A stretch of 63,973 nucleotides of DNA, filler included, from Folioceros fuciformis (taxonomy: Eukaryota), in NCBI GenBank assembly GCA_049999805.1. It is 8 parts of 8 records of this genome, joined end to end, with 100 filler letters (N's around TTAATTAATTAA, not from the genome) between each part and the next. Parts side by side here need not be neighbours in the genome. Positions count along the whole stretch, not along the records: positions 16,095 to 32,049 come from JBNGIO010002943.1; 7 more parts are not named here. One strand, 5' to 3'. Below are positions 6,728 through 37,296 of this stretch, piece after piece. Every line of letters starts with the position of its first letter. Within the stretch, counting starts at the first letter, position 1. A program made the position numbers and the translations under genes. Under the pieces are notes generated by a model. It saw nothing but the letters and a program-made list of their open reading frames with translations, did no database searches and had not been told where the DNA came from.

Positions 6728-6829
6728 AAGACGTCTAGGGTTCAGTTCAGATGTTGAGGAGCAAGACCTCTTGAAGCACGCCAATAGTCAAGTAAAATGT
6801 GACAAGGCTGACTATTTACCTATCCTTCT

Positions 6830-11170: not shown

Positions 11171-11172
11171 AC

Positions 11173-14321: not shown

Positions 14322-14471
14322 ATGATGGCTTTCACACAACTACTTGGTACAGCTGCATGTGCTACATTATTTGCAGTTCTGATGGCATTATGGCACATTT
14401 ATCAACACTTGATAAACTATACAGAGCCTACATACCAACGTTATATAGTGCGCATCATATTTATGGTTCCT
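14322..14471 (+). CDS. LAZ1-like: LAZ1-homolog / TMEM184 (OST-alpha family) membrane protein, first coding exon
   Basis: WHIYQHLINYTEPTYQRYIVRIIFMVP is the hallmark plant LAZ1-homolog sequence. The exon ends at a phase-0 GTAAGT donor (14472). Confidence 0.93.
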
Positions 14472-15451
14472 GTAAGTGCATGTGAACTAACATATCATGT
14501 ACAATGTTGTATGCATAAACAAAAGTTCAACTGCTTGTGCTTTCCTTCCTTGCTTACTCTTATATGTGTACACATTTCATGGGGCCAATTCATATTTATT
14601 TCATAAATTGCGTTATGAATTAAAAATATTCCTTTTAAATTTTATATCTTTAAATTATTCTTTTGAGAAATCATGGAAGAAAAGAAACCAAACTTTCAAT
14701 CCTTTGTTATCATCTTTGTTTTGTTAATATATTTCTAAGATTAGGAAAATAAGGAAAAGTATATAGTTGTAGGTTGATAAAGTACACAAGAGGAAGAAAA
14801 TTTGCTTGCAAAACATGTTGTTTGCTATCTTTCCTAGCATCTTCCTCACTCTGGAGACATCTTACATACCATCCTTTATCCTCTCCTCCCCTCACGTGCT
14901 GAAACCTTTCTCCATAGCCCAAGCAACATCTATGTGGGGGAACTCCCAACTATCTTCTTTTCCCTTTCCCTTCGCACCATCTCTCTCTTCCCGCCCTTCC
15001 TTGTGACTTGGACAACATCTCTCCCTTCATTCCATGGCGTCTACCACGCTTACTTGATTTACTCCCTCTAGGTCATGTACCACCTTTATGTTAATCCTAC
15101 ATTTTTCTGCTCTCATTACCTTCTCCCTCTTAATCTCACTCCTCATGGGTTACATTACATCTTGTGCTCTCTCTCACTCTCATTGTAATCCCTTGTTAAC
15201 CCATTTCCTTCAACACCACTTGTAGAAGTTCCATTTACACATACCCCCCATCTACACTTGTCCTCCTTATCCTTGAGCCTACCTTTATTCTCACATCACC
15301 CTTTTCCTCACCACAAAGATAAGGATACATCATAGGAGATCACATATATACAAAAAATTCTTCTTATTTGAATAAAATCACAAAAGATTTATCTAGGCAT
15401 GTGTACTAGATTAGAAAGATTATTGATAATACTTCTTGAATTACACAACAG

Positions 15452-15994: not shown

Positions 15995-16094
15995 NNNNNN
16001 NNNNNNNNNNNNNNNNNNNNNNNNNNNNNNNNNNNNNNTTAATTAATTAANNNNNNNNNNNNNNNNNNNNNNNNNNNNNNNNNNNNNNNNNNNN
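15995..16094. other. Artificial assembly spacer (also 32050-32149, 41316-41415, 49433-49532, 54578-54677, 61160-61259, 62746-62845)
   Basis: Identical 44N + TTAATTAATTAA + 44N blocks; the 12-mer puts stop codons in all six frames. Confidence 0.98.
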
Positions 16095-16105
16095 CAGCTG
16101 CATAT

Positions 16106-16504
16106 TGTTGAGATGTCACCCCCGCCATGCTCAAAGGAGGTTAAAACAAGTTAGTTGAAGCAAGATGCAGAATCCCAAAAATAAGAGCACTATAACAAAG
16201 CTCTTAAACTCAAATAAAAAGGAGAATTACAAAAACAACACAATACAAGTGAAGAGGGAGTTAGACTGCAAATACTAAGTGGGTTCATCCCTTCTTTTAT
16301 GGACCTATGGGTGGCACTCTCATTTCGTGCCCAATATGGGATAAATGACCCCAAACCCTACAATACTTTTTTGCCTAACATAGCAAAGTCTAATAAGCTA
16401 TATTTATATATTGATCATAACCTTAATCACTCTTACCACTAATTAGTACAAACTCAATAAGCTAGATTAGCACTAATTAATCTCAACATTAATTATGCTT
16501 AACA
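16106..16504. mobile_element. Solo LTR with 5-bp TSD CATAT
   Basis: TGTTGAGATG...CTTAACA flanked by CATAT (16101-16105, 16505-16509); nearly identical to 51188-51589. Confidence 0.93.
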
Positions 16505-16559
16505 CATATGTCTAATGATGAATAAATAAATAAATATCCGTAAAAGAGATAGTGAGACT

Positions 16560-19500
16560 ATTGAGTCTTATATCAATAAGTTTTGCACAGCTCATGCGAC
16601 TCTCTCATATTGTGGGACCACATTTACAGAATCTCAAGCTGCCATTAGCTTCTTAGCATCTCCGCCTGAAAGTTATTCTCAATTCATTGGTTCACAGAAT
16701 GCCACCATTCAAGCTTCTAGCCCTGGTGCTACTGTAACTCTTGAGCAAGTGTTTGGAGCATTGATTGCTGAAGAAAGAAGGGGAAGTCTACACAAGACCA
16801 AGTCCAACTCACAGCAGAGCTCAAGAGTCCTGTTTACCTCCAAGGGATGTCGTAGTGGCAGAGGTAGAGGGCGAGGTAGCCCTAGACAAGGTGCAGCATC
16901 TACTTCTCGTCAGCCCAACCTTCAAAGGAAAACCTTCACCTGCGATTGGTGCAATATACCTAGGCATTAGGGGAAGGATTATAGGGAAAAGAGAGCTGGT
17001 GAACCCGGGAAGGAGTGTTCGTCCCCAGAATCTAATGTTGCAAGTTCCAAAGGACTATCCAAAACACCTTCTATCTCAGCAGTTTGCTTGTCTTCCATTC
17101 AGATTCAGACGGATATGTGGTTTTTAGATTCAGGTGCCACCTGCCGCATTTGCTATGATAGGAGTGCTTTCATTGTTTTCAACACACTTTCTGACCATCA
17201 CCAGTACTCCTAGGGGATGATAGTGGGTTAGCCATAAAGAGCTCAGGTTCTGTTAAGATCCAATTACTTGATGGCTCCATTCTCCCCATCTCAAGTGTGT
17301 TATTCATCCCATCTATGACCAAAAATCTCATGTCAGTGATGCAATTGACAGAGGAACAATACTGTAGAATATGCTTTGATCACAATGGTTGTTCTGTGAC
17401 TAGTCATAGTACCCCAGCTGACTTTTTTATAGGAACCCCATTTAATGACTTGTACCTCCTCAACGTTCAAACACAGTATGTCCAAACTCCTATTGTCCAT
17501 GTGCACAAGGTTCCGGCCTTTCTCCAACTCGATTATGGTACTGCCGTCTAGGGCATGTTAACTTTAACAGATTCTATACCTTAGTTGATAACTATGTCTT
17601 GCGAGATCTCTTATCTTTCTCCTTTGACAATAAAGCCTTTTGTGAATCTTCTCAGTTGAGCAAGACCATTTCTCAACCCTATAAAGATTTGAACGTATCT
17701 CGTGCTATCAGCCTTCTTCATACTATCCACGGTGACATTTGTGGTCCTATGTCTACCACGTCTTTTGGGGGAGCATCCTACTTCATTACTTTCCTTGACG
17801 AGTGGAGCCGATACTGTATAGTGTTTGTTCTTGCCCACAAGAGTGAGGCCTTATCCTGTTCTTAGACTTATTCGACATCTTCTTATTGTCAAACTGGGCA
17901 CAAGCTGAAAATTTTGAGGACAAACAATGGTGGTGAATACACGAGTCATGCATTCAAGGATTTTTGTGTTGGAGAGGGAGTCCTTCATCAATTCACAGTC
18001 CCCTACACGCCAGCACAAAATGCCCTCGCCAAACGCAAGAATAGAACACTTTAGGAGGCCACCCTATCCAGCTTATCTTTTGCAGGCCTAACTAAAGGCT
18101 ATTGGACAAAAGCCCTCATGGTTGCAAACTATGTTCAAAATAAATTGCCTGCTAAGGACACCTTATGAGCGGTAGACTTGTAAGAAGCCCCGCATTACTC
18201 ATCTTCAAATATTTGGAGCTCCCGCAGATGATTTCATTCCTCAGCATTGAGAAGTAAGCTTGACCCAAAGGCAGTACGATGCATTTTCATTGGATACTCA
18301 GATGAAGTAAAAGGATACAAGTTGTTTGATCCTACCTCCCAACAAGTTTCCTTCTACAGAAGTGTTGTTTTTCATGAGAATGCCCTTCTATGATGTCATG
18401 AAGTTGCTTTGGCACTATTTGCCCTCGAACCCACAGTTTCTATCCATGGTGTTCATGATTTGGACGATTTTCATACTGATGCTGATTCTGACATCTCCAT
18501 TTTTTGATGTTGATGAAGTACCCAGTTCAACTCCCTCGGCTTCAGGGGGCAAGACAACATTTGGGACACCTGATCTTCCACCACCAATAGTCTCCCAACC
18601 AGATGAGTCCTCTGTTCCCTCCATTGACGAACCCTCTAAAGTTGATCCTGTCACTGCTCTTGATGACAAGCCTGCTTATGGACCAACTTTAGAAACATCT
18701 GAACCACCAGTTTCAGAAGCAGTTGAACCTCACCATTCTCAGACGATTGAGCCTGCAACAGAACTAGTACTACATCGATCAACTCGTCACAAACCACCAT
18801 GTAGTGAATGGCCTGAACCTCGCTTTGCAGCTAGCCTTGTTGCAAACACCTCAAACTCCTCAGTTAGTTTCCATACCTTAGAGCCCACAACTTACCAGGA
18901 GGCAATTATTGGCCCCAAAGTTGATCATTGGAAGAAGGCCATCAAGTCTGAATACAATTCTCTAATATCTAACCAGACTTGGAAACTAGTAGATTTGCTG
19001 AAGGGCCGTAAGCATGTTGCTTACAAATGGGTATTCAAAAAGAAGTTGAATATTGATGCCAGTGTAGGTCGTTATAAGACAAGGTTGGTTGCTAAAGGTT
19101 ATAGCCAGATAGCAGGATTGGATTATAATGAAACCTTCACCCCTGTAGTTAAGTCCACTTCTATCATAATACTACTTTCCCTAGCTGCTCATTATGGACT
19201 TCTGGTGCATCAGTTAGATGTTAAAACTACTTTTGTGAATGGATCACTAGAAGAAGAAATTTACATGGCTCAGCCACGAGGTTTCGAAATAGATATGGAT
19301 AAGGTTTGCCAGTTGCTCAAAACACTCTATTGCTTGAAACAATCAAGACGAGCCTGGAATGAAACATTCCATGCTTTGCTTATTGAGCTAGGGTTTACAT
19401 GCCTAGACGTTGACATTAGTGAATATATCTTATGGGAAGGTGCAAACTTTCTTATCTTAACAGTTTATGTAGATGACAACTTTCTATTTAGTACATCTGC

Positions 19501-21390
19501 TACATCGATGGCTAGGATAAAAGGAGTTCTGCTTTCTTGTTTCGACATGACCAACTTGGGCCAACTTACTTTCTCACTTGGTGTCCAATTTCATTTTTCT
19601 GAGGACAGACATATCATTGAGATTCACAAGGATACATCAACTGCTACAGCGATTTAATATGTTTGACGCTCGCCATGTTTCAACCCCTATGTCAACAGGT
19701 GATAAGCTCTCTAAGGAGCAGTGCCCAACGACAAAGGAGGAAAAATATACAATGGCAACACGTCCCTATGGGCAAGTTGTATGTAGTTTGATTTATGTAG
19801 CTTGAGGGGTATACAATAGGTATCATCAGGAGCCACCACATCGTGGTGTGATTACCAATCGGCTATCGCCTCATCGAAAAATCTGGTTTTTCATGCACAT
19901 TGAGATTACTCACCATTTTATTCGGCAGGCTGCTGATACATGAGAGGTGAAGGTCCATTACATCCCAACAACAGACAATATAACAGATCTCCTAACTAAG
20001 GTTTTACCCAAGGCCTCCCCATTCAAGGCAATCTATAGCAGCAAGACTCAAGCTTATCACTATTACATATAAAACTGGTACAGCACACTAAGCTGAGATG
20101 CAATCCCCTGTCTTCAAATGTGAACATGGTAGTCCTGATCCCTTATCTTTATCATCAGAGCCTTCAGTAGGTTTTCAGCTCTTTTGAGCTTGTCGAGTAG
20201 GGTTGCAAGTCAAGGAACAGAATTTCATTAGTAGTTGAGGCAGAAGGTGACTGAAAGATCAGAGAGGTAGATAAGGTGGATGAAGCATCACTTACAGCCA
20301 ATCCCTTCTTCTTCCTCTTCAAAGTCGTCATATCTCTTTTTCTTTTGAGCCTTCTCTTTAAAGGGAGTGACATGACTGCCCTTAGGAATTTTGGTTGCAC
20401 ACACTAACACCATCTGATCATCCTTGCTCAGTTTTTCTTTTGCTCCAGAGGTGAGATTGTAGGCATATTAATGATCATGTTCCCCATCTTCAGCAAGTAG
20501 AGCTCTCTCCATTACTTCACGATACTGATGTATGGACAATCTCCCACCTTTTCCATCATAGGTCTTCTCAAATGAAACCTAAGGGGGTGTATCATAGACT
20601 TGGACTTTATCTCTTGTAGGTGTCATTGTCTTCAAGTAGACCTTTGCATAGTCTTTCTGTCTTTGCTCTCCTTCAGTCTTGCTCGTGTCTATGTTGGAGG
20701 GATAGTGTTCACAGATTGATCGGTGAAGAATCCATTAGCGACATGAGTATCTCAAAGCAAGAATTGACTCTCGTCCACATTGAATGCACTCTATGCCTCT
20801 TGAAGCAGCTTTGGGAGAGACCTCCATCAGCACACAGCTGTGGTTGCAGCCCTTAATCCAAATTCCCAACAGACTGATGACGAACCAGGCAAGTATAAGA
20901 GCAGCAACAAGATTGGACAGCTCGAATAAAGAATGGTGGAACGCCATTGTGCTTTATCCTGCAAGTTGGAGCGTAGAGCTAGCTGGAGCGCCACAAGACT
21001 ATAGGCTGAGCATGATGGAGTTAGACATGAGGAACAGACGTAAGAAAATTTGTCACTCTTGCACTCATGGAGTTGTGCATACCACCTGATACTTGTTTCA
21101 GGGTTTAGGTTTAAATTCCTTTTGGCTTAATTCTAAATCCCAATTATTAGACTAAGAGGGAGCAAAGGAATATTGATAACGCATAGGTTATATATTTTGC
21201 GATAGCCTAATAATTAGTTACAACTACTTTTCAGACTCTTGTATATATGCTACTTTTTCCCATTACACAAAATAACTATTTTTCATTTTGCATAGCCGGG
21301 TGCTCTTCGTGCCCATGGTTGTGCCCATGGTTGTACCCCCGCATCTTCCATCGCGTATATGTGCATAAGGACTCCCACTAGCTCAGTAAA
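16560..21390 (+). mobile_element. Degenerate Ty1/copia element (gag end, PR, IN, RT, partly deleted RNase H, ~1.1-kb 3' spacer with antisense gene, PPT ~21154, degenerate 3' LTR; right boundary approximate)
   Basis: CDWCNIPRH knuckle, WFLDSGAT, TIHGDICGP, YKTRLVAKGYSQ, HQLDVKTTF, LTVYVDD. Purine tract AAGAGGGAGCAAAGGAA followed by TATTGATAAC. Confidence 0.88.
20114..20947 (-). pseudogene. Antisense two-exon gene in the copia 3' region (exon1 20947-20296, intron 20295-20203, exon2 20202-20114), putative C2HC zinc-finger protein
   Basis: A single frame runs from ATG 20947 with three TAA/TAG stops. GTAAGT donor, TACTAAT branch site, acceptor ACTTGCAA (AG mutated to AA). The phase-1 splice gives in-frame SLLDKLKRAENLLKALMIKIRDQDYHVHI*. 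Confidence 0.7.
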
Positions 21391-21752
21391 GGACATTGTA
21401 GGCTTGCAAGTTTTGCTAATTTAGCAACTGTATGTGAGGTAACAAAATGTGACTAGGATTTTGGCAGAGACAACATAAGGGCTGCATATAGGTCCTCTTC
21501 ATGCATCACCTTTCCGTATGTGCTCTCACATTGTGTAGCAAGTGTTCTAAACATGCCAACATGTCCTTTTCCTTAAATCCTTTACCAGCCAAACTTAATG
21601 TGTTTGCCATTTTGAAATCGAATGTTGACGTTGGATTGATGATTTCGGGATTGATGATCAAGGTTTGCTGCCATACAATGAATCGAAGGTATTTTCTATT
21701 ACTGAAAAGAGATGGAAAGTCCCATAATGAATCTACAAAATGTGGTAAGGGG

Positions 21753-24700
21753 CTAGGCCTAAATATCAGTTCGCCAGGGTACGACCTGGCGAACCGACAT
21801 GCCATGCCATGAGCATGGCCTGCCTCTCCCATACCCCTCTCTCTCGTATCCGTGCCAACCCGCGACCAAGCCACCGGGGGCGAGGGGAACTAACCCGCGA
21901 TCAGGCCACCGGGGGTGAGGGGAACTTCCCGTCGTCCTGAATACTACGGCGATACTTTGGCACGATACAAAGTCAAACTCGTCGGCACACACAGCGTTTA
22001 GGCATGCGCAGCTGGGACGCACGGAGGCAGGTGTGGAGGAGGATCACCAAGACGAGCAGAGAGGATGATCACCAAGACTGAGTTTTTGATTATTTGCAGC
22101 ATTGGTCAAAACATATGAAGGGAGACATTACTGGCACCTACATCGCACCTACACCTACGCTAGTTTTCTTTGTCTGCTGATAAATTCCAAGTCACTCTCT
22201 TCTTCTTTTTCTTCGGTGGTGAGAAGAATGGCTTAATCCTGACGATGTTGGTGTCCCCCTCGTTGGTGGTGAATGCTTGAAGAGGCTGCCGTGTTGCAGG
22301 CATTTCCTGCTCATATGCAATCAAATGCTGAACATCCATGAGTGTACTTTTCACCAAAAGTGCTGCATCCCCCACGACTTCCTTATTCTTGTGCATCTAA
22401 TTCACAATAGCATTGCAATCTTGCTCTAGGAAGCGAATCTGATCTTCTGTTCCACTTTCGTTACATAAAACACCCTCCACAGCGGGTTGCAGGTTGCACG
22501 AAACGCTTTCCATCAACTGTTCTCTATTATCACATAAAGCAAGAGTTGTTACAGGCCCTTGAATTACCAGACCATTCGTTGCTGTATAATAACGTTTCAT
22601 TCGGAGTGTGTATGAGAGCACTCCAAGCATATCCTACACTTTCACGATGTGTTTACAAATAAAGCCTTTCCTCCCTTGAGCACACTCACATGTAGCCCAC
22701 ATGGAATCTGCATTCTCAATTGTATATGTCACATGGGCATCTGTTGAACTCCTGCATAAAGCTGTGGTCCAAGGTGGGGAAGGCAAAGTAACATTATCAT
22801 CGTCAATCAGAGTTGCCCCATCTATTACAGTGTGCACCAATTTCTCCTCGGTTTGTGTTAACCACATACCCTCCTTCTTTGCAATGGTTCACATACCAAT
22901 AATGGGACGCAATTACGAAGCACAATTGATGTAACAGCCAGTCTAATACCCTGCCAGCAAGAGATGCCCTCGTAAGACTAAGTTTCTGCTTAAAACACCG
23001 ATGCTATGCCTCTATAACAGAGGCACAGTCTTGCCCTGCATGCGGAAGCATGCGGGCATTTTTATGAACATGCCTGCAATCAAAACAGGCCTTGTGAAGA
23101 TGTGTATGTGCACAAGCTTGAAAAGGGAGAATACGAGGTTAGAGCTATGGACTAACCTAGTTGTGCACCCCGGGTTGTTCTGAAATAGCCCACGAATGCG
23201 GGTTGCCGTTTCTCCCACTTGGCATAGAAGGAAAATAGCAAATGCTCAACCTCCCGAATTGTATCTCAAATTGTTGTGCTGGAACCCTTGACGTACATCA
23301 GTTCACCTAATGCCCCATATGGCTTCCTTGTCTACCCTCTTTTGGACTTTCTTAATAAGATTAAGGAGCCAAGCACAATGCACATGCCAGAGGTAAAGAA
23401 GAAGAGGAACACTATAATTGTAAACCTTTCGAATTGCAGCAATCTTAGCTGCACAAGGGCAACCAATTTGCATCCTTACTTAACGAAACCTCATGAAAAG
23501 ATGTCAACCACCTGGCTATGGTGTCACTTTTATCGTCCTTTGCCAAAACCCACGCTATCGAAATACCATTCATATGAAGGTCGAAAGCCATAATTGTGAA
23601 GAGCTGGTACTTGTACTGGTTTACACCAAACGTGGAGTCAATCCCGAGCACATTATTCGTACCATGTGTCAAACAGGTCTGAAGCATGAACGGGGTCTCA
23701 ATCCCCAAACAAAACGACTGATCAATAGTGGACTTGTGAAACACAAATGCAGCATTGAGCCATGTTCATATACCCACACTAATATTGTCATCTTGATGAT
23801 GTTTCCACACTGTACCTTGCAAGTCGACGGGAAGATTGTCAATGTCTGCACTTGTCAAGAAATCATCTCTAACCTGGACATACTGTCACTCATACTCCAA
23901 GCTCGTTGAAAGCCCACAACATTTTGCCCGCACCTGCTCCTAGTGTTGTCTAAGAATCTCTGACACAAAAACATTACATAGTAAACCATGTTTCACCCAT
24001 GCCTTGTTGTCAGCACTCAAGTGAGAAGCCCTGACATTGTTTAGCATGCCTATGTACTCTAGGCCATGACACACTCTTTCAGAAACATCCACGTGCATAG
24101 TTTTGTATAATGTTACTTGAGCAATTACTGGCCATCTTCGTAGCTGTGCAATGACAAACGAAGCTTGACAACCGTGTTTGATGCTTTCACCGTTAGCAAT
24201 CCAAGGCTGTCTACGCTTCTTCTCACCCTCCACAGTAATAGGTACAGGTGGTGGAGGCATGGGAACATTCCGCAATTCCTGTGGCCCATATGCACAACAA
24301 TAAATGCAAGCAAAACACTAAAGATGAAATCTTTCAATGATACCAACAAGCAGAAAGTAAACGGATTGAATCCTTAGGGTCCATACATACCGTGTTGTGA
24401 CAATGGCTGCATCTAGCTTCAAACAACTTACTGTTGAAGTATTGCTGGCCGGCCCTCTACGAGATGCCTTGTAATAATTTGTAGGAGCATGTGACAATGA
24501 GTTCATGTCCTCTATGAAATCTTGCACTCTAGTCCAAGGGATGTAAGCTAGTTGTTGTTGTTTGTCTTGGCCAGGACAAAATGGATGCTTTTATGAGATT
24601 GCTGCTATTCCAAGTCATTGAAAGAAAATTTCCCTTCACCAGGCCTCTGAACTGCAAAAGGACAATGCACTGCAACCTCATCCATCGCTCGAGCACGATC

Positions 24701-25004
24701 AGTATACATGCATCCTCCATAGCCTTCAGTCTTTCAACTCTTACCGTACGTCATGCTTTGAGCAGAGTGCTCTCTCCGTTCTTGTTCTCAACTGAAACGA
24801 ACGAAGGGCGAGCAGTATCGCCGTGGGAATTGCTACGACAATCGGGGCGACGGGAACTTGAATTAGTTTCTCGTCGCTCATGGTAGCTCGGTCTCAGGTT
24901 GGCACGGATAAGAGAGAGAGGAGAAGGGGAGAGGAAGGCCATGCTCATGGCATGGCATGTCAGCTCGCCAGGCCGTACCTTGGCGTACCAATATTTAGGC
25001 CTAG
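21753..25004 (-). mobile_element. MULE-superfamily DNA transposon with ~140-bp terminal inverted repeats
   Basis: CTAGGCCTAAATAT...CATGCCATGCCATGAGCATGGCC...TATCCGTGCCAACC at 21753-~21892 is mirrored at ~24863-25004. The element contains a transposase pseudogene. Confidence 0.88.
22160..24720 (-). pseudogene. MULE-type transposase with SWIM zinc finger (resembles the Arabidopsis At1g60560/At4g13970-type SWIM family)
   Basis: IDSTFGVNQYKYQLFTIMAFDLHMNGISIAW (DDE core), CECAQGRKGFICKH (SWIM), HGCQASF...HVDVSERVCHG, CAYGPQE. Probable intron (GTATGT donor near 24390). Multiple stops. Confidence 0.85.
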
Positions 25005-26740
25005 TGGTACCGTAAGGAAGACTCCTACAAACTATCTAAGCATCTATTTGTTGATTCTAAATTCATAATTTTTTTATTTACAATTTAAGAAAATTATAAA
25101 TTGATCATTTCAATCTATATTACCATTTATCTTAGAAATTATTTTGAACAAATAAATGGGAGAATGCACCCTTGCCTATAAGGCACACACATTAGAAATT
25201 TATAGGTAAATTCTAATAACCCGAATTGTCATTGTCTTCAATTGTTATTATATTTAAAATAAAATTATATGATTGAAATACTAAATTAAAATTTTTGATT
25301 ACAGGATTGCATTTTCCTATTGAATACTCTTCTTCAAATTAGAATATTTTCGAGAAATATATTAGAATTTATAGCCTATAAATTAGACTAAATGTTATAT
25401 CATTTTTTACAGGTTTCTAGGGTACAACTGCCAATTAGGCAGTTGTCATAGTGTACCTCCATTGAATTGTTGGAACTATTCAAGGGACATGCACTATGCT
25501 AGTTGACTTAATTGCAGTACATTCTAATTCCTGTAAAGAAAATAAAACAAAAAAATTATATTTTGTTGTTCATTGTTTGTTTTTTTGAAAATTGGTTTCT
25601 AATCAAGAAAACATAAAAAATACATTTTCTGAAAGCTAATTAAAATTTGCATCTATCTGGATGCAATGTATAACACAATGTGTTGATACCATCTTGATTT
25701 TAGGTGTGTTGTAAATCTATTATATATAATATAATACAATACAATACAATAAAGAACGTTCATCTCTACATATGTTGAGTAAAATATATATTACTTAAAC
25801 ATTGTGAAAACTCAAAATACTTAATTGTCTTACAAATAGTCACCCCTTCTTAAACTAGTATTCTGAATGAGTGTGATCTTTAACTTAACAGACACACTCT
25901 AATGAAACGGTGTGCCTTCTTATATCTAAAACCCTAAGTTGATATAAACAACACTCTATGGGGTAGGTATTCCAACATAGCAACTAACGTTGCTGTTTCT
26001 AGTGTGCATATGTTCCCAGTAGATTCAGAGCCAAATGCGGAGATTAAAGGGGATATTACTAGAGTGGAGAGCTTTGCTTGGAAGGGAAATGATCCATGGA
26101 GGAGGATTAATCAAAATCTTTTGCCGAGTTGAAAGGAATCTATGCAAAGATCGGGAGAGGAAGGAGGAGGGTGCCACTCTAAACATGTTGATATTTGTGA
26201 TCAACTGGCACACGACCTTAGGCGCATCTAACCACAAAGCGTGTAAACTTGCATTAAGGAAAAACATGAAAGCAAATAAAGTATATAGTCTAAGAACATG
26301 AAACAGTATGTAACCGTCACTAACCCTAAGTGGTAGCAATGTATACTTAGGTCTAAATAATACCTTTAACACTCCCACTCATTGCTAACCACCTTAGTGA
26401 GTTGTAGGCATTTACAAGTTAATCGAATTAACGACTAGCTAGAACCCAAAACCCTGAATCTACATAGGGTTTATCAGAGCTCCTTCACTCGTGCAGTTGT
26501 GCCAATCGAGTCTTCGAGTACTAGGAGGAAACGCTCCTTGAAGCTTGCATCTCTAACCTCAGAACCCTGTACCCAGAGGAATCACCTATGGCGAACAGGG
26601 GTGCAGTAGGAGCGATCATGAGCGTCTCGATTCAGATCTTAGACTCAGAGACTAGCGACTCTGAAGCAACTCTCTTCAATCAGCAGATCCAGCTCCTAGA
26701 TCAGGGGCACCTGGCGTCGGAGGGGAGTTAGGTTGAAGAC

Positions 26741-27624
26741 ATGGGCGCCGCTCCCACTGCCTCTAATGAGTTTTGCGAATACCCTCCGCCAATTCCTGCA
26801 CCAAGATATCCAACTCTGGAAGAAAACCGAGCTGTGTGCATCTGCCCCGAGCATCCGCCACATTGTCGTCGGCATGGGCGGACACCCAAGTGGCTTCACA
26901 TGTGCAGACGAGAGAGCTGCCACATGAACAGATACTGGGAGGATTGGGTAAACAAGCTGAAGCAGCGAGAGACTGAGCTCAGGAGGGAACTGGAGGAGTC
27001 AAGGATGCGTCATAACCCAACTGCTCACTCTGCAGATCAAATTCCTAAACCCGAGACTCCTGTTCTACCTAATTTCATTTTGTCTTGTGGTCCCCTTAAC
27101 AGCGCTTTTCTACCTCAAGGAAGGGAGACAAAGATTGTGTTGCCGATGAGATACCGAGGGAGAACTTTTTCTTTGCCAAGAGGCCACCCTAACAAGACGG
27201 TGAGGCTTATCTCCGACAATGACGGTGGAAGCGACCCTCTAACTCTAGAGATGTATGTCTGTACTGAGACAGGAATAGCCATGAAAAGGGAGGAGTGGTA
27301 CAGATGGGGAGGTTCTAGTGGGAACTTTGTATCCTTTTATGGTAAGCACCTTCAAAACTCTAAGGTCTCCCACTCTTGTTGTTGTTTAGAGAAGGACTGA
27401 AAGGCTTACACTGAAGCACTAACTGTACATGTGTGTTACTTGCAGTTGCCAGGGATAGACCAAATGAGGAAGCAGTGATACCCTATGCAACTGAGGACGA
27501 GAACATTGAAGAAGAACCAAAACATGATTTCGACTCCAACTACCTTGGGATACTAAAAGCAAGGGGGGAAGAAAGAAGATCATTGTTCTTTGACGGCACA
27601 AGCTCAGGATCTGAGACTCCCTAA
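26741..27624 (+). CDS. Antisense two-exon gene of the copia element (exon1 26741-27341, intron 27342-27445, exon2 27446-27624; 259 aa), Cys/His-rich motif plus coiled coil
   Basis: G|GTAAGC donor, CACTAAC branch point (27417-27423), TTACTTGCAG acceptor. The phase-1 splice joins ORF 26741 in frame to ORF 27433-27624. Contains CICPEHPPHCRRH...LHMCRRESCH. Confidence 0.75.
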
Positions 27625-28845
27625 GAACTGTGAACACAATTACATCACTGGTAACACACAACAGTCAGTCATTCCTCAAACTGACATTTTCAATGCTGCT
27701 GGAGTCTAAGACTCCTAGCATCTTCTTAAACTGGTTGTGCTTTACCTTAGGAAGGGCTTTAGTGAGCAGGTCAGCTGCATTAGTTTTTGTTGGTATGTAC
27801 TCAAGACAGATCTGACCTGAAGCAACTACCTCACGAATGAAGTGGTGTTTAACTTCGATATGTTTTTTCCGTGCATGAAAGACAGGATTTCGTGCCAGGG
27901 TAAGTGCAGACTGATTGTCGCAGTAAATTAACGTCGGTTGAGTCTGCTCCTGTCCCAGATCCTTGAGTAACCTTCTCAGCCATATGTCCTCCTTTGCAGC
28001 TTGAGTGAGAGCAAAGTATTCTACCTCTGTAGAGGATAGAGATACTGTGGATTGTTTCTTAGATGACCAGGTAACCATGCCACCAGCTAATAAGAAGACA
28101 TAGGCCGACATCGACTTTCTTGTCTCTGGGTTTGATGCCCAATTGGCATCACAATAACCAGCCAGTGTAAGAGAATCCTTGGATGACTTTTGTTTCGAGT
28201 AGTGTATCCCATGTTTACTGGTACCTTTCAAGTATCTGAAAATGCGTTTTGCTGCTGACCAATGTATTTGTCCAGGATCCTTCAAGAATTGAGAGGCCAT
28301 ACTCATGGAAGGGAGATATCAGGTCTCGTATGGTTAGAGCAAAAGATCAAGGAGCCAACAGCTTGAAAATACGGTACGCTCATCATCTGGTTTTTCTCTT
28401 AAGCAGTTTGAGGTGACTGCTCTTTCAATAGTTTACTGCCAGCCTCCATAGGGGTTAAGGCAAGTTTAGCATCCAGGAGCTTGTACTTGTGCAACATATC
28501 AAACATGTACTTTTCTTGGTGTATAACTAAAGTGCCTTGTTGAGGATCTCGTAGGAGTTGTGTGCCCAGACAGTAGGACAACTCACCAACGTCCACCATG
28601 TCGAACCTTCCCAAGAGTAAGGACTTGACACGTTCAATGTATGGCACGTCAGTACCTAGGAGAATATAGTCATCAACGTGCAAGGCCAAGATAACATAGC
28701 CAGGGTCATCATGAAGCAGATACACATTGGAGTCTGCTGAAGACTTCATGAAGCCCAAACCTCGTAAGAACTAATCTATGTACTCATACCAAGCTCTTGG
28801 ACTTTGCTTTAGGCCATAAATAGTCTTGAGCAACTTGCAACTAGT

Positions 28846-29059
28846 AATAGAAATAGTATAGATACTTTATATAGAAACGTACTTTAGATAGAAATAGTAT
28901 AGTCTAGCAGCAGCATATAAAGTAAACATGTAAATAGAATTATATGTAAATAACCAAATACAATATGTCCTAAAGCTTGGAACCCTAACTGCCGGATGCA
29001 TGTAAGGTGTCCGTGCATCTAACGATCTCTCCTCTTTTTTCATAAAACTTTTCTTCATA
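28846..29059. mobile_element. AT-rich ~210-bp insertion (probable degenerate solo LTR) interrupting RT
   Basis: The RT reading GKEDW|CKLLKTIYGLKQ is split by unrelated AT-rich sequence. Termini and TSD are degenerate. Confidence 0.5.
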
Positions 29060-30365
29060 CCCAGTCCTCCTTGCCTGCTAGCAATCTCATGACCTTCGGG
29101 CTGTTGCATGTAGATCTCCTCCTCCAGCTTGCCATGAAGAAATGTTGTCTTGACATCTATCTGATGTATAAAGAGAGAGAAGAAGGCTGACATGGCAAAC
29201 AGAACTCAAAGGGACTGAGCCTTGACCACAAGGGAGAATGTATCATGATAGTCTAGCCCAGGGACTTGTGAGAAGCCGTGAGCAACCAGCCTGGCCTTGT
29301 AACGGGCAATGGAACCATCAGCTCGATACTTCAACTTGAAGACCCACTTACTCGTCACAATTTTCCTCCCTTGAGGGGGTCTACAAAGCTCCCAGGTTTT
29401 ATTAGAAATAAGAGAGTTGTATTTAGACTTTATAGCATCTTTCCATTGCTTGGATTTAGGATTGGTAAGAGCCTCATGATAGGACTGAGGCTCATGGCCA
29501 GGGTTGATTGCAACATGAGCTGTATCTCTAACCGTCTCTCCAGATCTAGTGGCAACCGAGCGCGAGACAGGTTGTGGCTCCCAACGTCCAGCCCAGGCCT
29601 CCGGTCTGTAGGGTTCCTCTAACCATTCCTCCCGAGGCCTATAGGGTTGAGAAGAGCGGCGTAAGGGAACTGAATGTTCGGGAGGATCAGGGAGAGGTAA
29701 CACAAACTGTACTGGGTCATCAACCTCAAGGTCTGAAACAGGTAAGTCGATGGGAGCAGAAGGAACATGAACTATTTGTGTAGATTGTTCTTAACCTGTG
29801 GCTGAGACTGAATCAAACAAGTCGTAATCATTGCTATGAGATTCAAAGTTGTGAGGTGGCAAAGGTGTGTCCAGAGGTGGAACAGTAACATCAGTGAAAG
29901 AAGGATCAGAGATAGGAAATTCAACGACATCTAAATCTGCCTCTGAGGATAAGTTCTCTTCTGATTTAGGTACTAAGACTGGATATTCATAGTCTACAGG
30001 ATCAACCACCTTTGGAGGCTTCAAGACAGGGCGCTCATCAAATACAACAGTCTTAGCATGACTGACTTTGTGTGAGATAGGGTCAAAAAGCTTGTACCCA
30101 TGAATTCTAGTAGTATAGCCAATGAAAATATGCCTTCTAGACTTATAGGCAAACTTATGTCGTAGCTTGTCAGGTATGTGGGCATAGGCTACACTACCAA
30201 AAATGCAAAGATGAGATAAGTTAGGCTTATGACCTGTCCACGCCTCAAACGGTATTACCCCTCGAAGAGAAGAGACGACAATCCTGTTTTGAAGATAAGT
30301 AGCGACTTCAACTGCTTCTGCCCAAAAACGTGTTGAGTTATCGAGCTCTATATAAGCTAAACTCA

Positions 30366-30555
30366 TGTGGTGTTAGTTATCCTGGTTGGGTTCATACTAA
30401 ACTAGTTCTAGTTATAGTAAGACAATGGTGATGCGTATTGTTTTTGGTTGTGACTACCAATACCACCCTCTCTTCTCTCCTCTCCTCTCCTACACTTGCG
30501 CATAGACTGGAGTCGATCCTATTGACAAAACGTACTGATAACCTCCCCTGAAACA
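30366..30555. mobile_element. ~190-bp TG...CA insertion (probable solo LTR) interrupting integrase
   Basis: Integrase sequence (NGRVERRHRTL ... FWAEAV) is split by TGTGGTG...GAAACA. No clean TSD. Confidence 0.5.
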
Positions 30556-32149
30556 GTAAACAACGAGCTGTATCCTATAGAGTACGATGTCTCCTCTCAA
30601 CCCTTCCATTCATGTCAGAGTGATAGGGAATTGTCAACTGTCGAGTAATCCCCTTATCCTGATAGAACTGTTGGAAGGCTGTGGAGAAATACTCTTTAGC
30701 ATTGTCTGATCGTGCACTTCCACTGCTTGCTTGTTTGTCCTTTAGCATAGGCTAAGTATCTTTTGAAACTCTCAAATACCTTGCTCATATGCTGTAGGAG
30801 CTCTGTTACTGTGAAATGAGACATATCACCTTCAAATACAACAAAGTAGCGAGCTCCTCCCCATGAGGCCACAGACATGGGACCATAGATGTCTGTATGG
30901 ATGAGATCAAGAACATCTGTGGGCTTGCGTTGCGTGGCTTACCACTGCCAAAATGGGACTTAGACTGTTTCCCATGTACACAGACCACGCACAAATCCAG
31001 GTCAGATAATTCGGATTCTGTAAATCCTGTTACCATTTTTTCTTTGAGTAGCCTTTGCATAGCCTTAATGTTGGGGTGACCAAGCCGGCAATGCCAATGT
31101 AAGGCCTTACTTGCAGTTGACTTCACTACAGCTGCATGTGCTATAGGCTTGGATGAAGTCGGGGAAACAAAATCTAGCAGATATAGATCATACAAGGGAG
31201 AACCCCTAGATATGACCCTAGTGGGAGAGTCCAATGTGGAGATCACACACAAAGGTATGTCGTGTGGTTTGCAAAGGTACATGTAAGGTATTCTCTAGCC
31301 TCAAATTCCCTCCATCCTTCAAGGAGATTTGGACTGTTCCGACACCCTTCATTGGGACTTCTGAATTATCTCCTAACGAAACTGCTGATTTGTGGCAGGT
31401 TGGAACACGTTCATATGTAACAAACTGCTTTTGAGATGAGCACATGTGATTCGATGCTCCACTGTCAAGGAACCATCGATGTGAATCACGAGCAACTGAA
31501 TTAAGGCAAGCTCCAAGCAACCCCGTCGTCGAGGCTCTCGCAATATATCCTTCAGGTTGCTTTCCCTTTGTTGCCTCATTTGCTTCTCGTTTCCTGCAAT
31601 CTTTAATCCAATGCCTTGGCTTATTGTAGTAATTGCAGTTACCGGGCTTCTTCCCACCTTGAAGAGAGGTGTTGTTTCCATAATTGGATGACTGGCCCTT
31701 GCCACGTCCAAAGCCTCCTCGTCCTCTACTTCTGCCTCGTCCTCGTCCTCGTCTCGAGAACAAAGCAGTATCCGTCTGTCTGTGGGAAGATCCTGCTCCA
31801 CTAAACCCTGATTTATGCATGTGCTTTCTGTTAGCCTCTGCTTATAGCAAAGCTCCAACTAACCTTTGGACTATCATGTTTGTTGTAGCTGGTGTATTGG
31901 CAGTTGCTGGTACAACTGTTGTTGCAACCTGTTGGCTAGAGCTGCACTGTTCATAACTCGGTGGTAATGATGCCAGTAACTGGATGGCTGCCCTGGACTC
32001 AGAAATTATAACACCACACGAAGCAAGCTTAGCTCTTGCAGCTCGAAACNNNNNNNNNNNNNNNNNNNNNNNNNNNNNNNNNNNNNNNNNNNNTTAATTA
32101 ATTAANNNNNNNNNNNNNNNNNNNNNNNNNNNNNNNNNNNNNNNNNNNN

Positions 32150-32688
32150 TTGTTCCTTGCTTGGTCAAGTGCTGTAGGCCGGCCATGTCTTATGGCGTCT
32201 GGTAAGGTTGTGGGGAGGAGATACCCAAGAGGGAAGTGTGTTCCCTTCTTCCTTTTGTTTGGGGTTAGTCTAGTGACTCTTGCCGGGTAGGATTAGTCCG
32301 TAGGGAAGTGTAGAAGGTAGTGGTGTCGTTGCTGGTTGCTGGTAGTTGTTGGTGTTGGTGCTGGAGCGAGAGAGTGAGTGAAGTGAGTGAAGGAAGTCGC
32401 AGATCTGAGAGGTTAGAGTCGTTGTAGTGACTGGAGTGAGTTTGTGGGCACCGAGAGAGGTGCAGCTGACCGCCGGACAGCGAGGCCTGTCCTACGCCTG
32501 ATCGGAGCTGGAGGGGAGCCCTCGAATCCGTCATCGAGTCGATCAAGTCCGACCCTCCGTCCACAGCAGCAAGGAACCCCATCGCTCCTTCGTGGGAACG
32601 ATACCCAATGTCTGAACGACAGTGGGATAAGTGTGGCCACTAAAGGTGGAACTCGTCGGCAATCCGTGCCCGGGGTTTTGCCTCCACA
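32150..32688 (+). mobile_element. 3' portion of an LTR-like terminal repeat
   Basis: ~32572-32688 aligns with ~54753-54867 (GGAACCCCATCGCT...GATAAGTGTGG...CCCGGGGTTTTGCC.CCACA). The similarity stops at ...CCACA in both. Confidence 0.6.
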
Positions 32689-32957
32689 GGTAACCCTAGC
32701 TGCAGTTGGGATTCAGCAAAACTTGAAGCTAAACTACAAGTCATAGAGTTCAGGTAACCCTAGCTGCAGTTGGGATTCAGCAAAGCGTGAAGCTAAACTA
32801 CAGGTCATAGATTTTAGGTAACCCTAGCTACAGTTGGGATTCAGCAGAACATGAAGCTAAACTACAGGTCATAGAGTTCAAGTAACCCTAGCTGTAGTTG
32901 GGATTCAACAGAACGTGAAGCTAAACTACAGGTGACAGAATTCAGGTAACCCTAGCT
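32687..32957. repeat. Tandem repeat, 64-bp unit, ~4.2 copies
   Basis: CAGGTAACCCTAGCTGCAGTTGGGATTCAGCA...GAAGCTAAACTACAGGTCATAGAGTT recurs at 32687, 32751, 32815, 32879 and partly at 32943. Confidence 0.95.
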
Positions 32958-33934
32958 ATCTCTTCATATCTGCTATCCAAAGCTGGAGCAATTGAGCACA
33001 TGTAGCAATCCAGTACGCAATCCCTAACTGTCACTCCTCTCCTTGTGCAACTAAAACTGATCACATGATCGCGATGGGCGGGCAATCATGCCCTGAAGAT
33101 TTAGATTCTCCTGAAAAGAATGGTGAGTCTGCCTTGAATTTCTCAAGGGGAGGTAGACTAGAAGCCCCAAGAAGAATTGACAATTGATTGCTGATACATT
33201 GCAAATGACCAGAATATTCTTCCTTCAAGGAAGAGAGTGCATGTTGTAGGCGCTTCTCCCTTTCATATATAACCTCTAGAAAAATATATTGTCTTGCACG
33301 CAATTGAGCTACACGTATCTCAATGCGATTACAATAAAATTCCACCACAGAATAAATATATTCATAGGATATATATAATATTTCATAGGATATTCAGAAT
33401 CAAAATCTTCTAAATAGTATCAACAAGAAACTCCAAATTAGATTGCAATTTCTTATTATCTATATGATGATATATAGGTGGTTGCTTCAATTTTTGATTT
33501 TTGGTCACTTGTTTGGAATGGCTTCTACAAGCCTCAATTTCATGATGTCTATCTGATCTTTGCTCTCGTTTCAAATTGTGGAGCCTTCTTTGTTCTTGCA
33601 ATTGCCTCTTCCAAAACTGTCGTATCAAAACTTGATAATTATCGAGTGTCTCATTGGTCCATGGCAGTTTGGAAGTGGGCGGGGAAATGTGTGATTCGCG
33701 CTGGTGTCTTGAAGGAAATTCACCATGCGACATTGCAAGATACAAAGGATTCAGACACCATCACGGGGCTCTGATAGCATGTGTAAATACCTCTTGTCCC
33801 TAGCTAAGCAAGCGAGCAATAAACAAAGGTAATATATATTCAACAAAGCGCAAAAGTATTATATACAAAATAAAGTCTCGTAACCCTAAATAACTAGGTC
33901 ATCATATTAACCCTTGCTGGTTATATATCCAACA
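32958..33934 (-). mobile_element. 5' end of a copia-type element (LTR 33780-33934, PBS 33768-33779, leader) abutting the RT of the next element
   Basis: GCTCTGATAGCA (PBS, one mismatch) followed by a TG...AACA 155-bp segment. It shares ATATTAACCC and TTGCTG.TTATATA with LTR 897-1084. Confidence 0.72.
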
Positions 33935-36035
33935 ATCGTACCCTTTTAGCCCTGGCAGACCATTACAATCTCCTAGTGCATCAACTGGATGTCAAAATAG
34001 CATTTTTTGAATGGCCTGCTAGAGGAAGACATCTATATGATCCAACTTGAAGGTTTTATCATCAACACCGACAAAGTTTGCAAGCTCCTCAAAACTCTTT
34101 ATGGACTCAAGCAGGCTTCTTGAGCCTGGTATGAGGTATTTCATAAGCTCTTGATGGAGCTAGGTTTCACCTGCCTTGATGCAGACACCAGTGTATATAT
34201 CTTATGGGATGGAGCAGACTTCTTGATCCTTACAGTTTATGTCGATGACAATTTCCTTTTGAGCAATTCTGCTACTCTTATGGCTCGAATCAACATGATC
34301 CTGCTTTCTAAGTTTGACATGACCGACCTTGGGGAACTTACCTTCTCCCTTGGTGTGCTGTTCCATCTCAATCCGACTAACAGAACTATTGACATACATC
34401 GGGATCACTTTGTTCATCAGCTCCTCAAGCATTTTAATATGCTTGATGCTAAACCAGTGACCACTCCTATGGCTCTTGGTGAGACACTTTCTGTTGAGCA
34501 ATGTCCCACTACCAATGCGGAGAAGAAGCTTATGGCCAACATTCCCTACTGACAAGCTCTTGGCTCCTTGATTTACCTTTCTGGTTCGACACGGTTGGAT
34601 ATTACTCGAGCAATGGGAGCTGTGAGTCAGTTTTTAGAGAACTCAGGTTTGTCTAACTAGACTGTTGTTAAACATATATTTTGATACTTGAAAGGAACTC
34701 CCCGACTGGACTTGCGTTTTTCGAAGTCCAAGACTGGTTTGGACCTTTCAGCTTATTGCCATGCGAATTGGGCAGGGGACCCTGATACCCGACACAGTGT
34801 TGTTGCCTATTGTACTTTCATGGGCACTTCCACTGTTTCCTGGTCTAGCAAGAACTATCCACTATATGTCTTTCCTCGACAGAAGCCAAGTGTGCAGCCA
34901 TGACTCAAGCTTCCAAGGAAATTATATGGATAGGCAGCTTTCTCAAAGAACTCCAACAACTTCAGGCAGATCCCACTCCATTATTATGTGACAACCAATT
35001 AGCCATCGCACTCTCAAGAAATCCTGTGTTCCATGCAAGGTCCGAGCATATCGAAATTAGCCATCATTTTATTCGTCAAGCAGCAGAGGGTAATAGTGTC
35101 AAATGCTCTTACTATGGACAAAGTCTCAGACCTTCTCATGAAGGCCTTGTCAAAACCATTACATGAAAAACACACTGCTTCTGCTAGTATTTGTGAGATT
35201 CCTGCTGTTGTTACTAAGTGCACTGCCCATTAGCTAGGCTTGCTTTTCTAATCCCCCAGTGGGAGTTTGTTGTGTTTCTTGAGTGTATTCACCATGTCTT
35301 TTCTGGCCTTCATCAGCCTTGGCAAACTCCTCTGTCAAAGCTACAAACCCACAGGGATAATCAGTCACTTCCCTTGCAAACAACAGATTCTCAACATAAC
35401 TTTCAAGTCAGCTACTTACTGCCGTATGTGACCCACACACCAGTTTCTGTCATGTGTGGTTCAGGTTTCTTCACTTCCTCTTTTCCTGCTCTCTTCGTGC
35501 CCTTAGCAGACTTAACAGGCTTGTGCCCCCACTCTTTCTCCATGTAGACCTCGTCATTAGAATCCACTGGAAGAGGGATTTCCATGTAGGCCTGCATCTC
35601 TTTGGGAGGTGGCCTTAGGGCCACCCATGCTATGCCTCCTTTTTCCTTTTGTTCAGTCTCTTTGCATGTCGTCTTGTGAAAGTCGGCTGCAGGCGCAGCA
35701 AACACTCTTGAAGGGATGCCCTTGTCGTCGACGTTCTGTAGTCTTCTCGCCATCTTCGCCTTCGAACTATCAGCTGGCACAGGACCGCAACTTGGGGACT
35801 CGAAGGAGACTATGTTTGAGTCAAGACAATGCATTGCATGGAGACAAGACTGCCTTTCAGAGAATTTCCTGACTGGAATCCAGATTCTCTCACAACCCAG
35901 GCACTTAAGGCCTTGTATTACATCGTCCATGGTCGACCACACAAGACGTCGATGTGCACACCTGCTTGGAGATAAAGATATCTAGGTGCAGAGGATAGCG
36001 AGCGAGAAGACTTTGATCACAAGTAACATCAACTC
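33935..36035 (+). mobile_element. Degenerate Ty1/copia RT-RNase H fragment plus 3' spacer with antisense gene (related to 16560-21390)
   Basis: HQLDVK, YILWDGADFLILTVYVDDNFL (cf. YILWEGANFLILTVYVDDNFL in the 16.5-21 kb element), NPVFHARSEHIEISHHFIRQ. Confidence 0.9.
35234..35930 (-). CDS. Intact antisense two-exon gene of the copia element (exon1 35930-35420, intron 35419-35341, exon2 35340-35234; 205 aa), putative C2HC zinc-finger protein
   Basis: A|GTAAGT donor, GACTGAT branch site, TTTGTAG acceptor. The phase-1 splice is in frame (...VTYG-TLTEEFAKADEGQKRH...EKQA*). Motif CLGC-x17-HAMHC. Confidence 0.78.
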
Positions 36036-37296
36036 TGTTAGAAAACAAGAAATCCCAAGATCAGGTCTTGGATCAATTCATTTCTCATAAGTAGTCCTTA
36101 CACACATATATAGCTTTAAGGCATGAACATATCTCGTTGGATAAGCAATTTATCTCGAGACAACCTATGTACTCTAATATAAACTAGAAACTACCAAATC
36201 CACAACTTAACTGGTTCACTAATAATTAGAACTAGTCTAGTGTGAACCCAACGGGTATAACTATCGCCACATGAGTTTAGCTCATATAGAGCTCAATAAC
36301 TGAACACTCCCCCTGGAGCTCAACTTAGCATCTGTATGCCTAACATAGCTCGGAATTTCTTCAGCTTCTTTGCTCCCATTGGCTTAGTGAATATATTGGC
36401 TATCTACTTGTCTGTGTTCACATACACAAGATCAATAGCTTCATATACAATCCTTTCTCAAAGAAAATGATAATGTACCTTAATTTGCTTCGTCCTCGCA
36501 TGAAACACTAGGTTTCGTGCTAACTGTATGCTACTAAGATTGTCACAATAGATAACAACCTTGTCATTGACCTGCAATCCAAAATCTCCAAGTAACTTAC
36601 AAATCCAAGTCACTTCACATGCTGCCATCGCTGCGCCGCTATATTCAGCTTCTGTACTAGACAAAGCCACTGTAGGCTGCTTCTTGCTGCTCCATGTTAT
36701 TGCTGCACTCCCAAGTGAAAACATGAATCCACTTGTAGATCTACGATCAGTAACACTACTTGCCCAATCTGCATCTATGTACCCACACAAGTTTATCTCT
36801 GAATTTGTAGCATAAAAGAGAGCATGATCCATAGTTGCCTTCACATAGTGCAACGTTTGCCTTACTGCATCCAAATGTGGCTTTCTTGGCGCTTGCATAA
36901 ACTGACTCTGCAGTCCCACTGTATAGTTCAAATCTAGTTTGGATATATTGAGATATATCAAGCTACCTACAATCTTCCTATACATTGTTGGATCTTCAAG
37001 TGCTTCACCATCATGAGCACTGAGCTTCAGATTTTGATCCAAAGGAATCGAAATTGGCTTACACTTAGCCATACCATACTTGGTTAGTACATTCGACGCA
37101 TACTTCTGCTGTGATAGCCAAATGCCTGTGTTGGTTCATATAATTTCAATGCCCAAGAAGAACCTCATTTCACCTAGGTCCGTCATCTTACACTCTTGTT
37201 GCAAAAGTTCCTTGATCTGCTCCACTTGATCCAGCTAATTACCTCCAATAGATTAGATCATCCATGTAGATGATCACAAAGACCAGTCCTTTTGTA

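Follow-up and report, generated by a model that had tools for sequence, protein, structure and literature searches.

We have found an open reading frame (ORF) with two exons in a decayed Ty1/copia retrotransposon of Folioceros fuciformis (assembly GCA_049999805.1), on the strand opposite to the genes of the element. The DNA examined, which we will call the window, is a stretch of 63,973 nt including filler letters; the element is found in positions 16095-32049, which come from record JBNGIO010002943.1. Its gag-pol region is on the minus strand and the antisense ORF on the plus strand, between the end of pol and a putative 3' long terminal repeat (LTR). The exons are separated by a stretch with the signals of a spliceosomal intron, and the segment is repeated in the genome much as the rest of the element. 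Judged by its sequence, the ORF is likely to be coding and to be spliced. On balance, and with little more than even confidence, we favour the interpretation that it is an accessory antisense gene of a low-copy Ty1/copia family: it would be placed between pol and the 3' LTR and provided with an intron. The coordinates of all features are collected in Table 1.

The antisense reading frame and its predicted intron

The two exons add up to 780 nt (601 + 179), which correspond to 259 codons and a final TAA. The intron has the donor G/GTAAGC, where the stroke marks the splice site, and the acceptor TTACTTGCAG, which ends in TTGCAG. The branch motif CACTAAC is found at 27417-27423, with the branch A 23 nt ahead of the acceptor. 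At the level of sequence all the features of a spliceosomal intron are present: a GT donor, a branch site 18-40 nt before the AG, a pyrimidine-rich run and a join which keeps the frame. The GC content of the intron is 0.42, versus 0.51 in exon 1. The first-pass annotation of this stretch had joined the two frames in the same way into a protein of 259 amino acids, with the same donor, branch point and acceptor: its coordinates and arithmetic are correct, and each signal is in its place. It had also set the end of the ORF about 40 bp from the end of pol. We count 40 bp between the stop of the ORF (27622-27624) and that of pol (27665-27667, minus strand): the two frames converge tail to tail.

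The length of the intron is not divisible by 3. The frame of exon 1 is shut by a TGA at 27398-27400, and the frame of exon 2 only opens past another TGA at 27412-27414. The two frames thus have no overlap, so that a single frameshift is no substitute for the intron. A continuous ORF in decay would need at least two hits in about 100 nt, whereas none is needed if the intron is accepted.

The length of the frame is unusual for a sequence of this composition. From stop to stop (26732-27400) it has 222 codons, a value equalled or exceeded in only 2 out of 2000 dinucleotide-preserving shuffles of the spacer 26383-27664 (p ~0.001). A strict intron pattern, GTAAG-(30-250)-CTAAC-(8-40)-TGCAG, was searched for in the whole window on both strands; it appears twice, versus 0.66 times expected from block shuffles. 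One site is the predicted intron of the antisense ORF, where the pattern lengthens the frame of exon 1 by 58 codons in frame; the other (3511-3595) has no flanking ORF. We have also scanned the whole window for two-exon ORFs which start with ATG and have donor, branch and acceptor motifs: the antisense ORF is the longest of the 7 candidates. Once the intron is removed, positions 26588-27624 contain one stop in 310 codons, as compared with 14-27 stops in each of the other five frames of the spacer; on its sense strand there are 14-25 stops per frame. A codon-usage test, trained on the copia ORFs of the window, was uninformative: the annotated frame is the best of the six, but the same is true for all the long open frames tested.

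The predicted protein has about 30 kDa and an isoelectric point of 6.3. Cysteines (33, 35, 42, 55 and 60) and histidines (38, 41, 45, 53 and 61) are clustered in 29 residues, and the final 59 residues have a net charge of -8. Residues 33-61 and this charge bear out the Cys/His cluster and the acidic tail which had been noticed before. In a single-sequence AlphaFold model the predicted local distance difference test (pLDDT) is 45 overall; the helix 64-90 is the only confident part, and strands are predicted in 130-200.

We have found no relative of this protein in any of the collections searched. Neither exon 1 nor the upstream extension matched a Pfam family, with E up to 0.01 or up to 10, and exon 2 only gave a match at chance level to an unrelated domain of unknown function (E 0.14). 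Neither a bZIP nor any other Pfam domain was recognized in the protein. A word-indexed search with exon 1 in 5.8 billion clustered proteins, limited to those of similar length, gave 0 matches among 50 candidates. In the ESM Atlas there was no usable match, and among the PDB sequences only a designed helical protein (E 0.14). An exhaustive HMMER search of 1.84 billion representative proteins gave no acceptable relative. Its single match (P0002) was rejected: it is a tandem-repeat coiled-coil protein of 1827 amino acids, and 13 of its repeats fall on residues 55-102 of the query only, a low-complexity helix match.

An orphan protein with a low-confidence model and a codon-usage score that does not discriminate is what would be expected of a spacer that encodes nothing. 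In that case the open frame and its splice-like motifs would be fortuitous, and any antisense transcript would have its effect as RNA, such as silencing triggered by double-stranded RNA. Antisense non-coding transcripts and antisense LTR promoters have been described (PMC7264820). The results given above speak against such a spacer: the length of the ORF is seldom reached in shuffles, the strict intron pattern is found at the one place where it extends the frame, and a single stop in 310 codons has to be compared with the many stops of the other five frames. We consider this explanation rather unlikely and prefer an antisense gene.

The copia element and its repetition in the genome

The element has been recognized by Pfam domains, by comparison with three full-length copia polyproteins and from the ORF lists. 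The integrase is found ahead of the reverse transcriptase (RVT_2) and ribonuclease H (RNase H), collinear with the three polyproteins, which is the order of Ty1/copia (Pseudoviridae). The relatives of the RNase H ORF are ordinary copia polyproteins from plants, oomycetes and many contigs; none is close, with at most 55% identity. The pol region is broken in at least six places over about 4.4 kb, and this copy is a dead relic. It is truncated within gag at 32049, the end of the contig. The integrase region has an insertion of 202 bp (30325-30526), which is a very high-copy repeat, with a depth of 5304 in the bin 30187-30455. It is skipped by three contigs in each run, so it is specific to this copy and lies outside the copia family. 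Its first 86 bp match the LTR start of another copia element at 36307-36222, and it is possibly an LTR, solo or partial.

From the stop of pol to the 3' LTR there is a spacer of 1.28 kb, which contains the antisense ORF. The outer edge of the LTR, at 26186, is marked by a depth step and by one contig of run X3 (described below), which matches from 26186 onwards and has different letters before. At the inner edge the purine tract GAGTGGGAG is directly followed by TGTTAAAGG, which starts with TGTT; the LTR terminates in ATCAACA. We prefer 26371 as the inner edge over 26382, judging from the TGTT...AACA termini after the purine tract. The sequence TATATA is found in the LTR on both strands, as a motif only. 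The first-pass annotation had given 26186-26382 for the LTR, preceded by a polypurine tract. Its outer edge stands, its inner edge may have to be moved to 26371 and the polypurine tract is weak. A clear junction is found for comparison in another copia element, where AGGGGGAG is followed by TGTT (~36315-36307). A second copy of 26186-26382 was not found in the window by a repeat search and two local blastn runs, because the contig stops at 32049, in gag. The ORF had also been said to lie inside the element: it is indeed found between the stop of pol (27665-27667) and the repeat boundary at about 26186, where the depth changes.

The repetition of the segment was studied by aligning the contigs of four public runs to positions 24000-32049, with at least 80% likeness. 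X1-X3 are DNA runs from one sample, possibly that of the assembly itself; X4 we guess to be an RNA run. The summed depth of the contigs in runs X1 and X2 is given in Table 1. In X1 the spacer with the ORF has a depth of 42-66, versus about 10.6 in the flank, which is single copy. The first-pass annotation had named the lack of the segment in other copies, as in a one-off insertion, as grounds for refutation; these values do not bear this out and suggest that the segment is not a one-off insertion. Contigs with an exact match are only about 10.7 deep, so that the surplus is due to further copies which have diverged. A contig from such a copy, on 26356-26659, is 87% alike, with 38 differences and 6 gaps; among the differences listed, variants at 26500-26554 are common to 3-7 contigs per run. 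None of the 15 joints listed, out of 37 in all, bypasses the ORF segment. The flat depth from 26421 through the stop of pol fits a single repeat unit, in a low-copy family with about 4-6 equivalents. Both the step near 26186 and the greater depth over the initial 200 bp are consistent with an LTR end; solo LTRs, and two LTRs in each element, would contribute the surplus.

Nesting of mobile elements is frequent in the window, as demonstrated by the 202-bp insertion and by the copia elements which abut at 33780-36320. The ORF might accordingly be the remnant of another mobile element or gene, unrecognized by us, which became nested beside pol before the family was amplified. We regard this origin as improbable. 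No similarity to transposase or transposable-element protein families was found in Pfam; there are neither terminal repeats nor a depth step inside 26421-27765; and the tail-to-tail fit near the end of pol is seen again in a second element, whose pol stop was not located.

Some other observations concern the same alignments. The guessed RNA run X4 has 7 pieces on 24000-32049, all of them less than 90% alike and none covering the ORF. The region 24000-25075 is repeated, with a summed depth of 135-220, and shares an inverted repeat of 142 bp with 21753-21893. No other part near the ORF is matched by X4 contigs (depths 114-161, less than 90% alike). In X3 the differences are mainly changes of C>T (402) or G>A (315), and among its 344 pieces 252 are less than 90% alike. 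This run resembles a bisulfite-converted library made from the same sample, and it could reveal the methylation of the element.

A second antisense frame and other copia elements of the window

A second two-exon ORF is found at 35930-35234 on the minus strand. It has 170 and 34 codons plus the junction codon, i.e. 205 amino acids, and runs antisense to a copia fragment on the plus strand, with reverse transcriptase and RNase H (33937-35112). Its stop lies beyond the RNase H match, which reaches 35112; the pol stop of the fragment was not located. On the strand of this ORF there is also a minus-strand copia element. The pol of this element ends at about 36322 and is followed by AGGGGGAG and by the start of an LTR (TGTTCAG...) at about 36315-36222. 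The LTR is the very high-copy repeat also inserted at 30325-30526 (summed depth about 5300, versus 10 for a single copy). As the polypurine tract and the LTR directly follow pol at about 36315, the second ORF is outside this minus-strand element.

The two antisense ORFs occupy the same slot of their elements in the same orientation, and each has a phase-1 intron close to its 3' end, a Cys/His-rich stretch at the N-terminus and a short charged last exon. Their proteins cannot be aligned: the Smith-Waterman score is 34, versus a mean of 32.8 in shuffles (z 0.2), and 188 of 500 shuffles score as high. No homologue was found for exon 1 of the second ORF (35930-35421), and the comparison of the first antisense ORF with the other long ORFs of the window by blastp and tblastx gave no match with E below 0.1. 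With relaxed criteria we also looked for more antisense spliced ORFs past other RNase H ends, in 20013-21800 (-), 10855-12600 (-), 57000-61159 (+) and 35100-36334 (+), and found nothing convincing. A likeness by eye between the regions after two other RNase H ends did not hold up. The first-pass annotation had counted three such genes, with the same slot and intron phase and with proteins that do not align. One candidate counterpart stands, the ORF at 35930-35234; a further one was not found.

This second ORF also bears on the possibility that the gene was captured from the host. A fragment of a cellular gene, with one of its introns, would have been taken up as DNA by one founder element and passively copied, serving no purpose in the element. 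LTR retrotransposons have been described to capture genes (PMC7264820). The low copy number (about 4-6 depth equivalents) suits a recent founder, and the splice signals are of normal cellular type. Yet no cellular homologue was found in 1.84 billion representative proteins or in Pfam, and a similar gene layout is found in the same slot of a second copia element. Capture is thus unlikely in our opinion, although we would place it first among the alternatives to an accessory gene.

The slot is not found in all copia elements. A compact element at 6829-11170 has at most about 50 bp from RNase H to the LTR, with no room for cargo; therefore the spacer of 1.28 kb is a feature of the family and the slot is not universal in copia. 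A third copy of the LTR of the compact element is found at 49119-49366, with a match similar to a primer-binding site at 49417. Another minus-strand element has, in its internal region, at least 4 tandem copies of a 64-bp unit at 32688-33007, detected with a 128-nt reference at 64-nt spacing; it also has a sequence similar to a primer-binding site at 33779-33768, with one mismatch.

Table 1. Coordinates of the features in the window (LTR, long terminal repeat; ORF, open reading frame). The last four lines give the summed depth of the contigs from runs X1 and X2.
Feature	Position	Strand	Details
Antisense ORF, exon 1	26741-27341	+	601 nt; 200 codons and 1 base, starts with ATG
Predicted spliceosomal intron	27342-27445	+	104 nt, phase 1, GT-AG
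Antisense ORF, exon 2	27446-27624	+	179 nt; 2 bases, 58 codons and TAA 27622-27624
Upstream extension of the antisense ORF, in frame	26588-26740	+	ATG 26588, 47 codons, TAG 26729-26731
Spacer between the converging stops	27625-27664	.	40 bp
Putative 3' LTR	26186-26381	-	~186-196 bp; outer end 26186, inner end 26381/26382 or 26371
Polypurine-like tract	26372-26395	-	Weak; best part GAGTGGGAG at 26380-26372
Decayed Ty1/copia gag-pol	27665-32049	-	From Pfam, tblastn with three full-length polyproteins and ORF lists
Pol_BBD	31841-31218	-	Pfam
gag-pre-integrase	31294-30806	-	Pfam
Integrase SH3	30372-29791	-	Pfam
RVT_2, three pieces	29790-28399	-	Pfam
RNase H ORF	28318-27665	-	No Pfam match; aligns to the C-terminal part of three copia polyproteins
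Insertion of very high-copy repeat in the integrase region	30325-30526	.	202 bp; depth 5304 in bin 30187-30455
Second antisense ORF, exon 1	35930-35420	-	ATG 35930, 170 codons; donor CA/GTAAGT
Second antisense ORF, intron	35419-35341	-	79 nt, phase 1, CTGAT branch site, acceptor TTTGTAG
Second antisense ORF, exon 2	35340-35234	-	34 codons, TAG 35236-35234
Compact copia element	6829-11170	+	LTRs 6829-7079 and 10902-11170, 81% alike; perfect tRNA-Met-type primer-binding site 7082-7093
Linkers	15995-16094, 32050-32149, 41316-41415, 49433-49532, 54578-54677, 61160-61259, 62746-62845		
Depth, flank	25076-26151		X1 ~10.6 (first bin 4.7); X2 7-13
Depth, LTR bin	26152-26420		X1 152; X2 190
Depth, spacer and ORF	26421-27765		X1 42-66; X2 58-86
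Depth, RNase H			X1 80-86; X2 108-120

Possible role and comparison with known systems

Extra ORFs in antisense orientation, located between pol and the 3' LTR, form a recognized class, often without relatives in the databases (PMC7264820, PMC6317226). Under the names aORF-3R or eORF-3'R the class includes gene23 of maize Grande, rice RIRE2, Silene Retand, ORF2 of Phaseolus PvRetro and Botrytis Boty (PMC7264820, PMC4093653, PMC11963269). The available parts of these sources give a superfamily for 15 Phaseolus ORF2 families and for Retand, all of them Ty3/gypsy, and name Grande, RIRE2 and Boty as families only. The ORF described here has the slot and the antisense orientation of this class, whose members are usually orphans of obscure function, presumed to have their own promoter (PMC7264820, PMC4093653, PMC11963269). 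It differs in other respects. Many of the aORF-3R proteins (Retand, Grande, RIRE2) have a Transposase_28 domain (PF04195); our ORF has no match to it in Pfam at E up to 10. In the same parts of these sources the known cases are described as single frames, whereas our ORF needs an intron; and the spacer has 1.28 kb, versus 2.9-6.6 kb in Retand (PMC11963269). It appears that the ORF cannot be assigned to any protein family: its layout is known mainly from Ty3/gypsy, and here it would be found in copia, together with an intron.

Extra ORFs in copia elements have been surveyed in REXdb (Neumann et al. 2019, PMC6317226). Those of 582 copia elements form 45 unrelated groups, and the conclusion drawn there is that they either evolve fast or go back to independent acquisitions. 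The first-pass annotation had posed the same choice for our ORF, between very rapid divergence and exchange of cargo among copia subfamilies. The threshold of that survey was 250 or more unbroken codons; exon 1 has 200, so that a two-exon gene of this kind would be missed. The copia elements of the SIRE lineage have an extra ORF which is also downstream of pol (eORF-3'F, env-like), but it is in sense orientation (PMC6317226). Our ORF is antisense to pol and does not belong to this type. Our literature searches turned up no report of a copia element with a spliced antisense ORF; antisense cases in copia may be listed in the additional files of PMC6317226.

Proteins encoded in a similar way are known in retroviruses. 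HBZ of human T-cell leukaemia virus 1 (HTLV-1) and APH-2 of HTLV-2 are antisense genes at the 3' end, expressed from the side of the 3' LTR, with a regulatory role in the nucleus (PMC11963269, PMC7264820). They have no sequence or domain relation with the protein predicted here, and the analogy only concerns their way of working. HBZ has a spliced form. Among the plant elements, gene23 of Grande is nuclear and the TRP28 proteins of Retand are predicted to bind DNA (PMC7264820, PMC11963269).

These comparisons suggest how an accessory gene might operate in the family described here. Since the intron lies antisense to the genomic RNA, it would not be removed from that RNA by splicing and would survive reverse transcription. 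As far as the life cycle of retrotransposons indicates, antisense would be the only orientation in which a passenger gene of a retroelement may keep an intron, while a passenger gene in sense orientation would be likely to lose it. The gene would be transcribed from its own promoter, in or beside the 3' LTR, and its transcript would then be spliced and translated. The Cys/His cluster probably binds zinc; together with the long helix and the acidic tail it may form part of a self-associating nuclear factor. Our best guess, by analogy with Grande, Retand and HBZ, is that the product would be a nuclear regulator of the expression or replication of the element, which binds nucleic acids or proteins.

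Several points weigh against an accessory gene. Its transcription, splicing, translation and function are inferred by us. The frame which starts with ATG 26588 is interrupted by one TAG (26729-26731), as had been noticed in the first-pass annotation. The protein has no homologue in Pfam, protein clusters, representative proteins, PDB sequences or the ESM Atlas, and its single-sequence model is poor (pLDDT 45). The six or more breaks found in about 4.4 kb of pol predict about one break in 780 nt: to observe none is unremarkable, therefore the intact frame is no evidence of selection. The polypurine tract is weak under either boundary of the LTR, and the 3' LTR itself is putative, with a single copy in the window. 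Finally, contig depth is a rough proxy for copy number.

A wider interpretation is more tentative. A clade of copia elements in this genome might have a spliced antisense gene at the 3' end, with a structure conserved between families, from the phase-1 intron and the short charged last exon to the tail-to-tail order with pol, and a fast-evolving protein diverged beyond recognition. It would act as a zinc-binding regulator similar to HBZ, in a superfamily for which no gene of this type is known to have been characterized, and its intron would have been kept because of the antisense orientation. We consider this possible but doubtful. If the second ORF is a true counterpart, the structure of the gene would have outlasted sequence similarity, which bears on the question raised by REXdb of fast evolution versus repeated acquisition. 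Antisense extra ORFs are common, yet functionally unexplained, and the cases described are largely Ty3/gypsy elements of flowering plants. An intron-bearing antisense gene in a copia family would extend the phenomenon to the other superfamily. It would also illustrate, as a clean case from nature, why a passenger gene that contains an intron has to sit antisense in a retroelement. The practical value is modest pending transcription and conservation among copies.

The window itself is not a continuous chromosome region. It has eight contigs with seven linkers of 100 nt between them, each made of 44 N, TTAATTAATTAA and 44 N, with stops in the six frames. Since the contigs are joined by linkers, features on the two sides of a linker are not genomic neighbours. 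Three other ORFs were found in the window. The first one, at 11369-11845 (+), has a match to the C-terminal part of N6_N4_Mtase (PF01555) which passes the curated cut-off (E 6.8e-7). This ORF starts 200 bp past the 3' LTR of a copia element and no adjacent ORF completes the domain; a match to a DNA methylase of bacterial type is unusual in a eukaryotic contig rich in repeats. The second one, at 22637-22888 (-), ends with a pattern Cys-x-Cys ... Cys-x-His, detected by eye, and its frame runs on through two stops to 22163. The pattern is reminiscent of the SWIM zinc finger of MULE/FAR1 transposases. The third one, at 14274-14606 (+), is a fragment which matches the N-terminus of Solute_trans_a, the organic solute transporter family (E 3e-13), and probably represents a host-gene exon among repeats.

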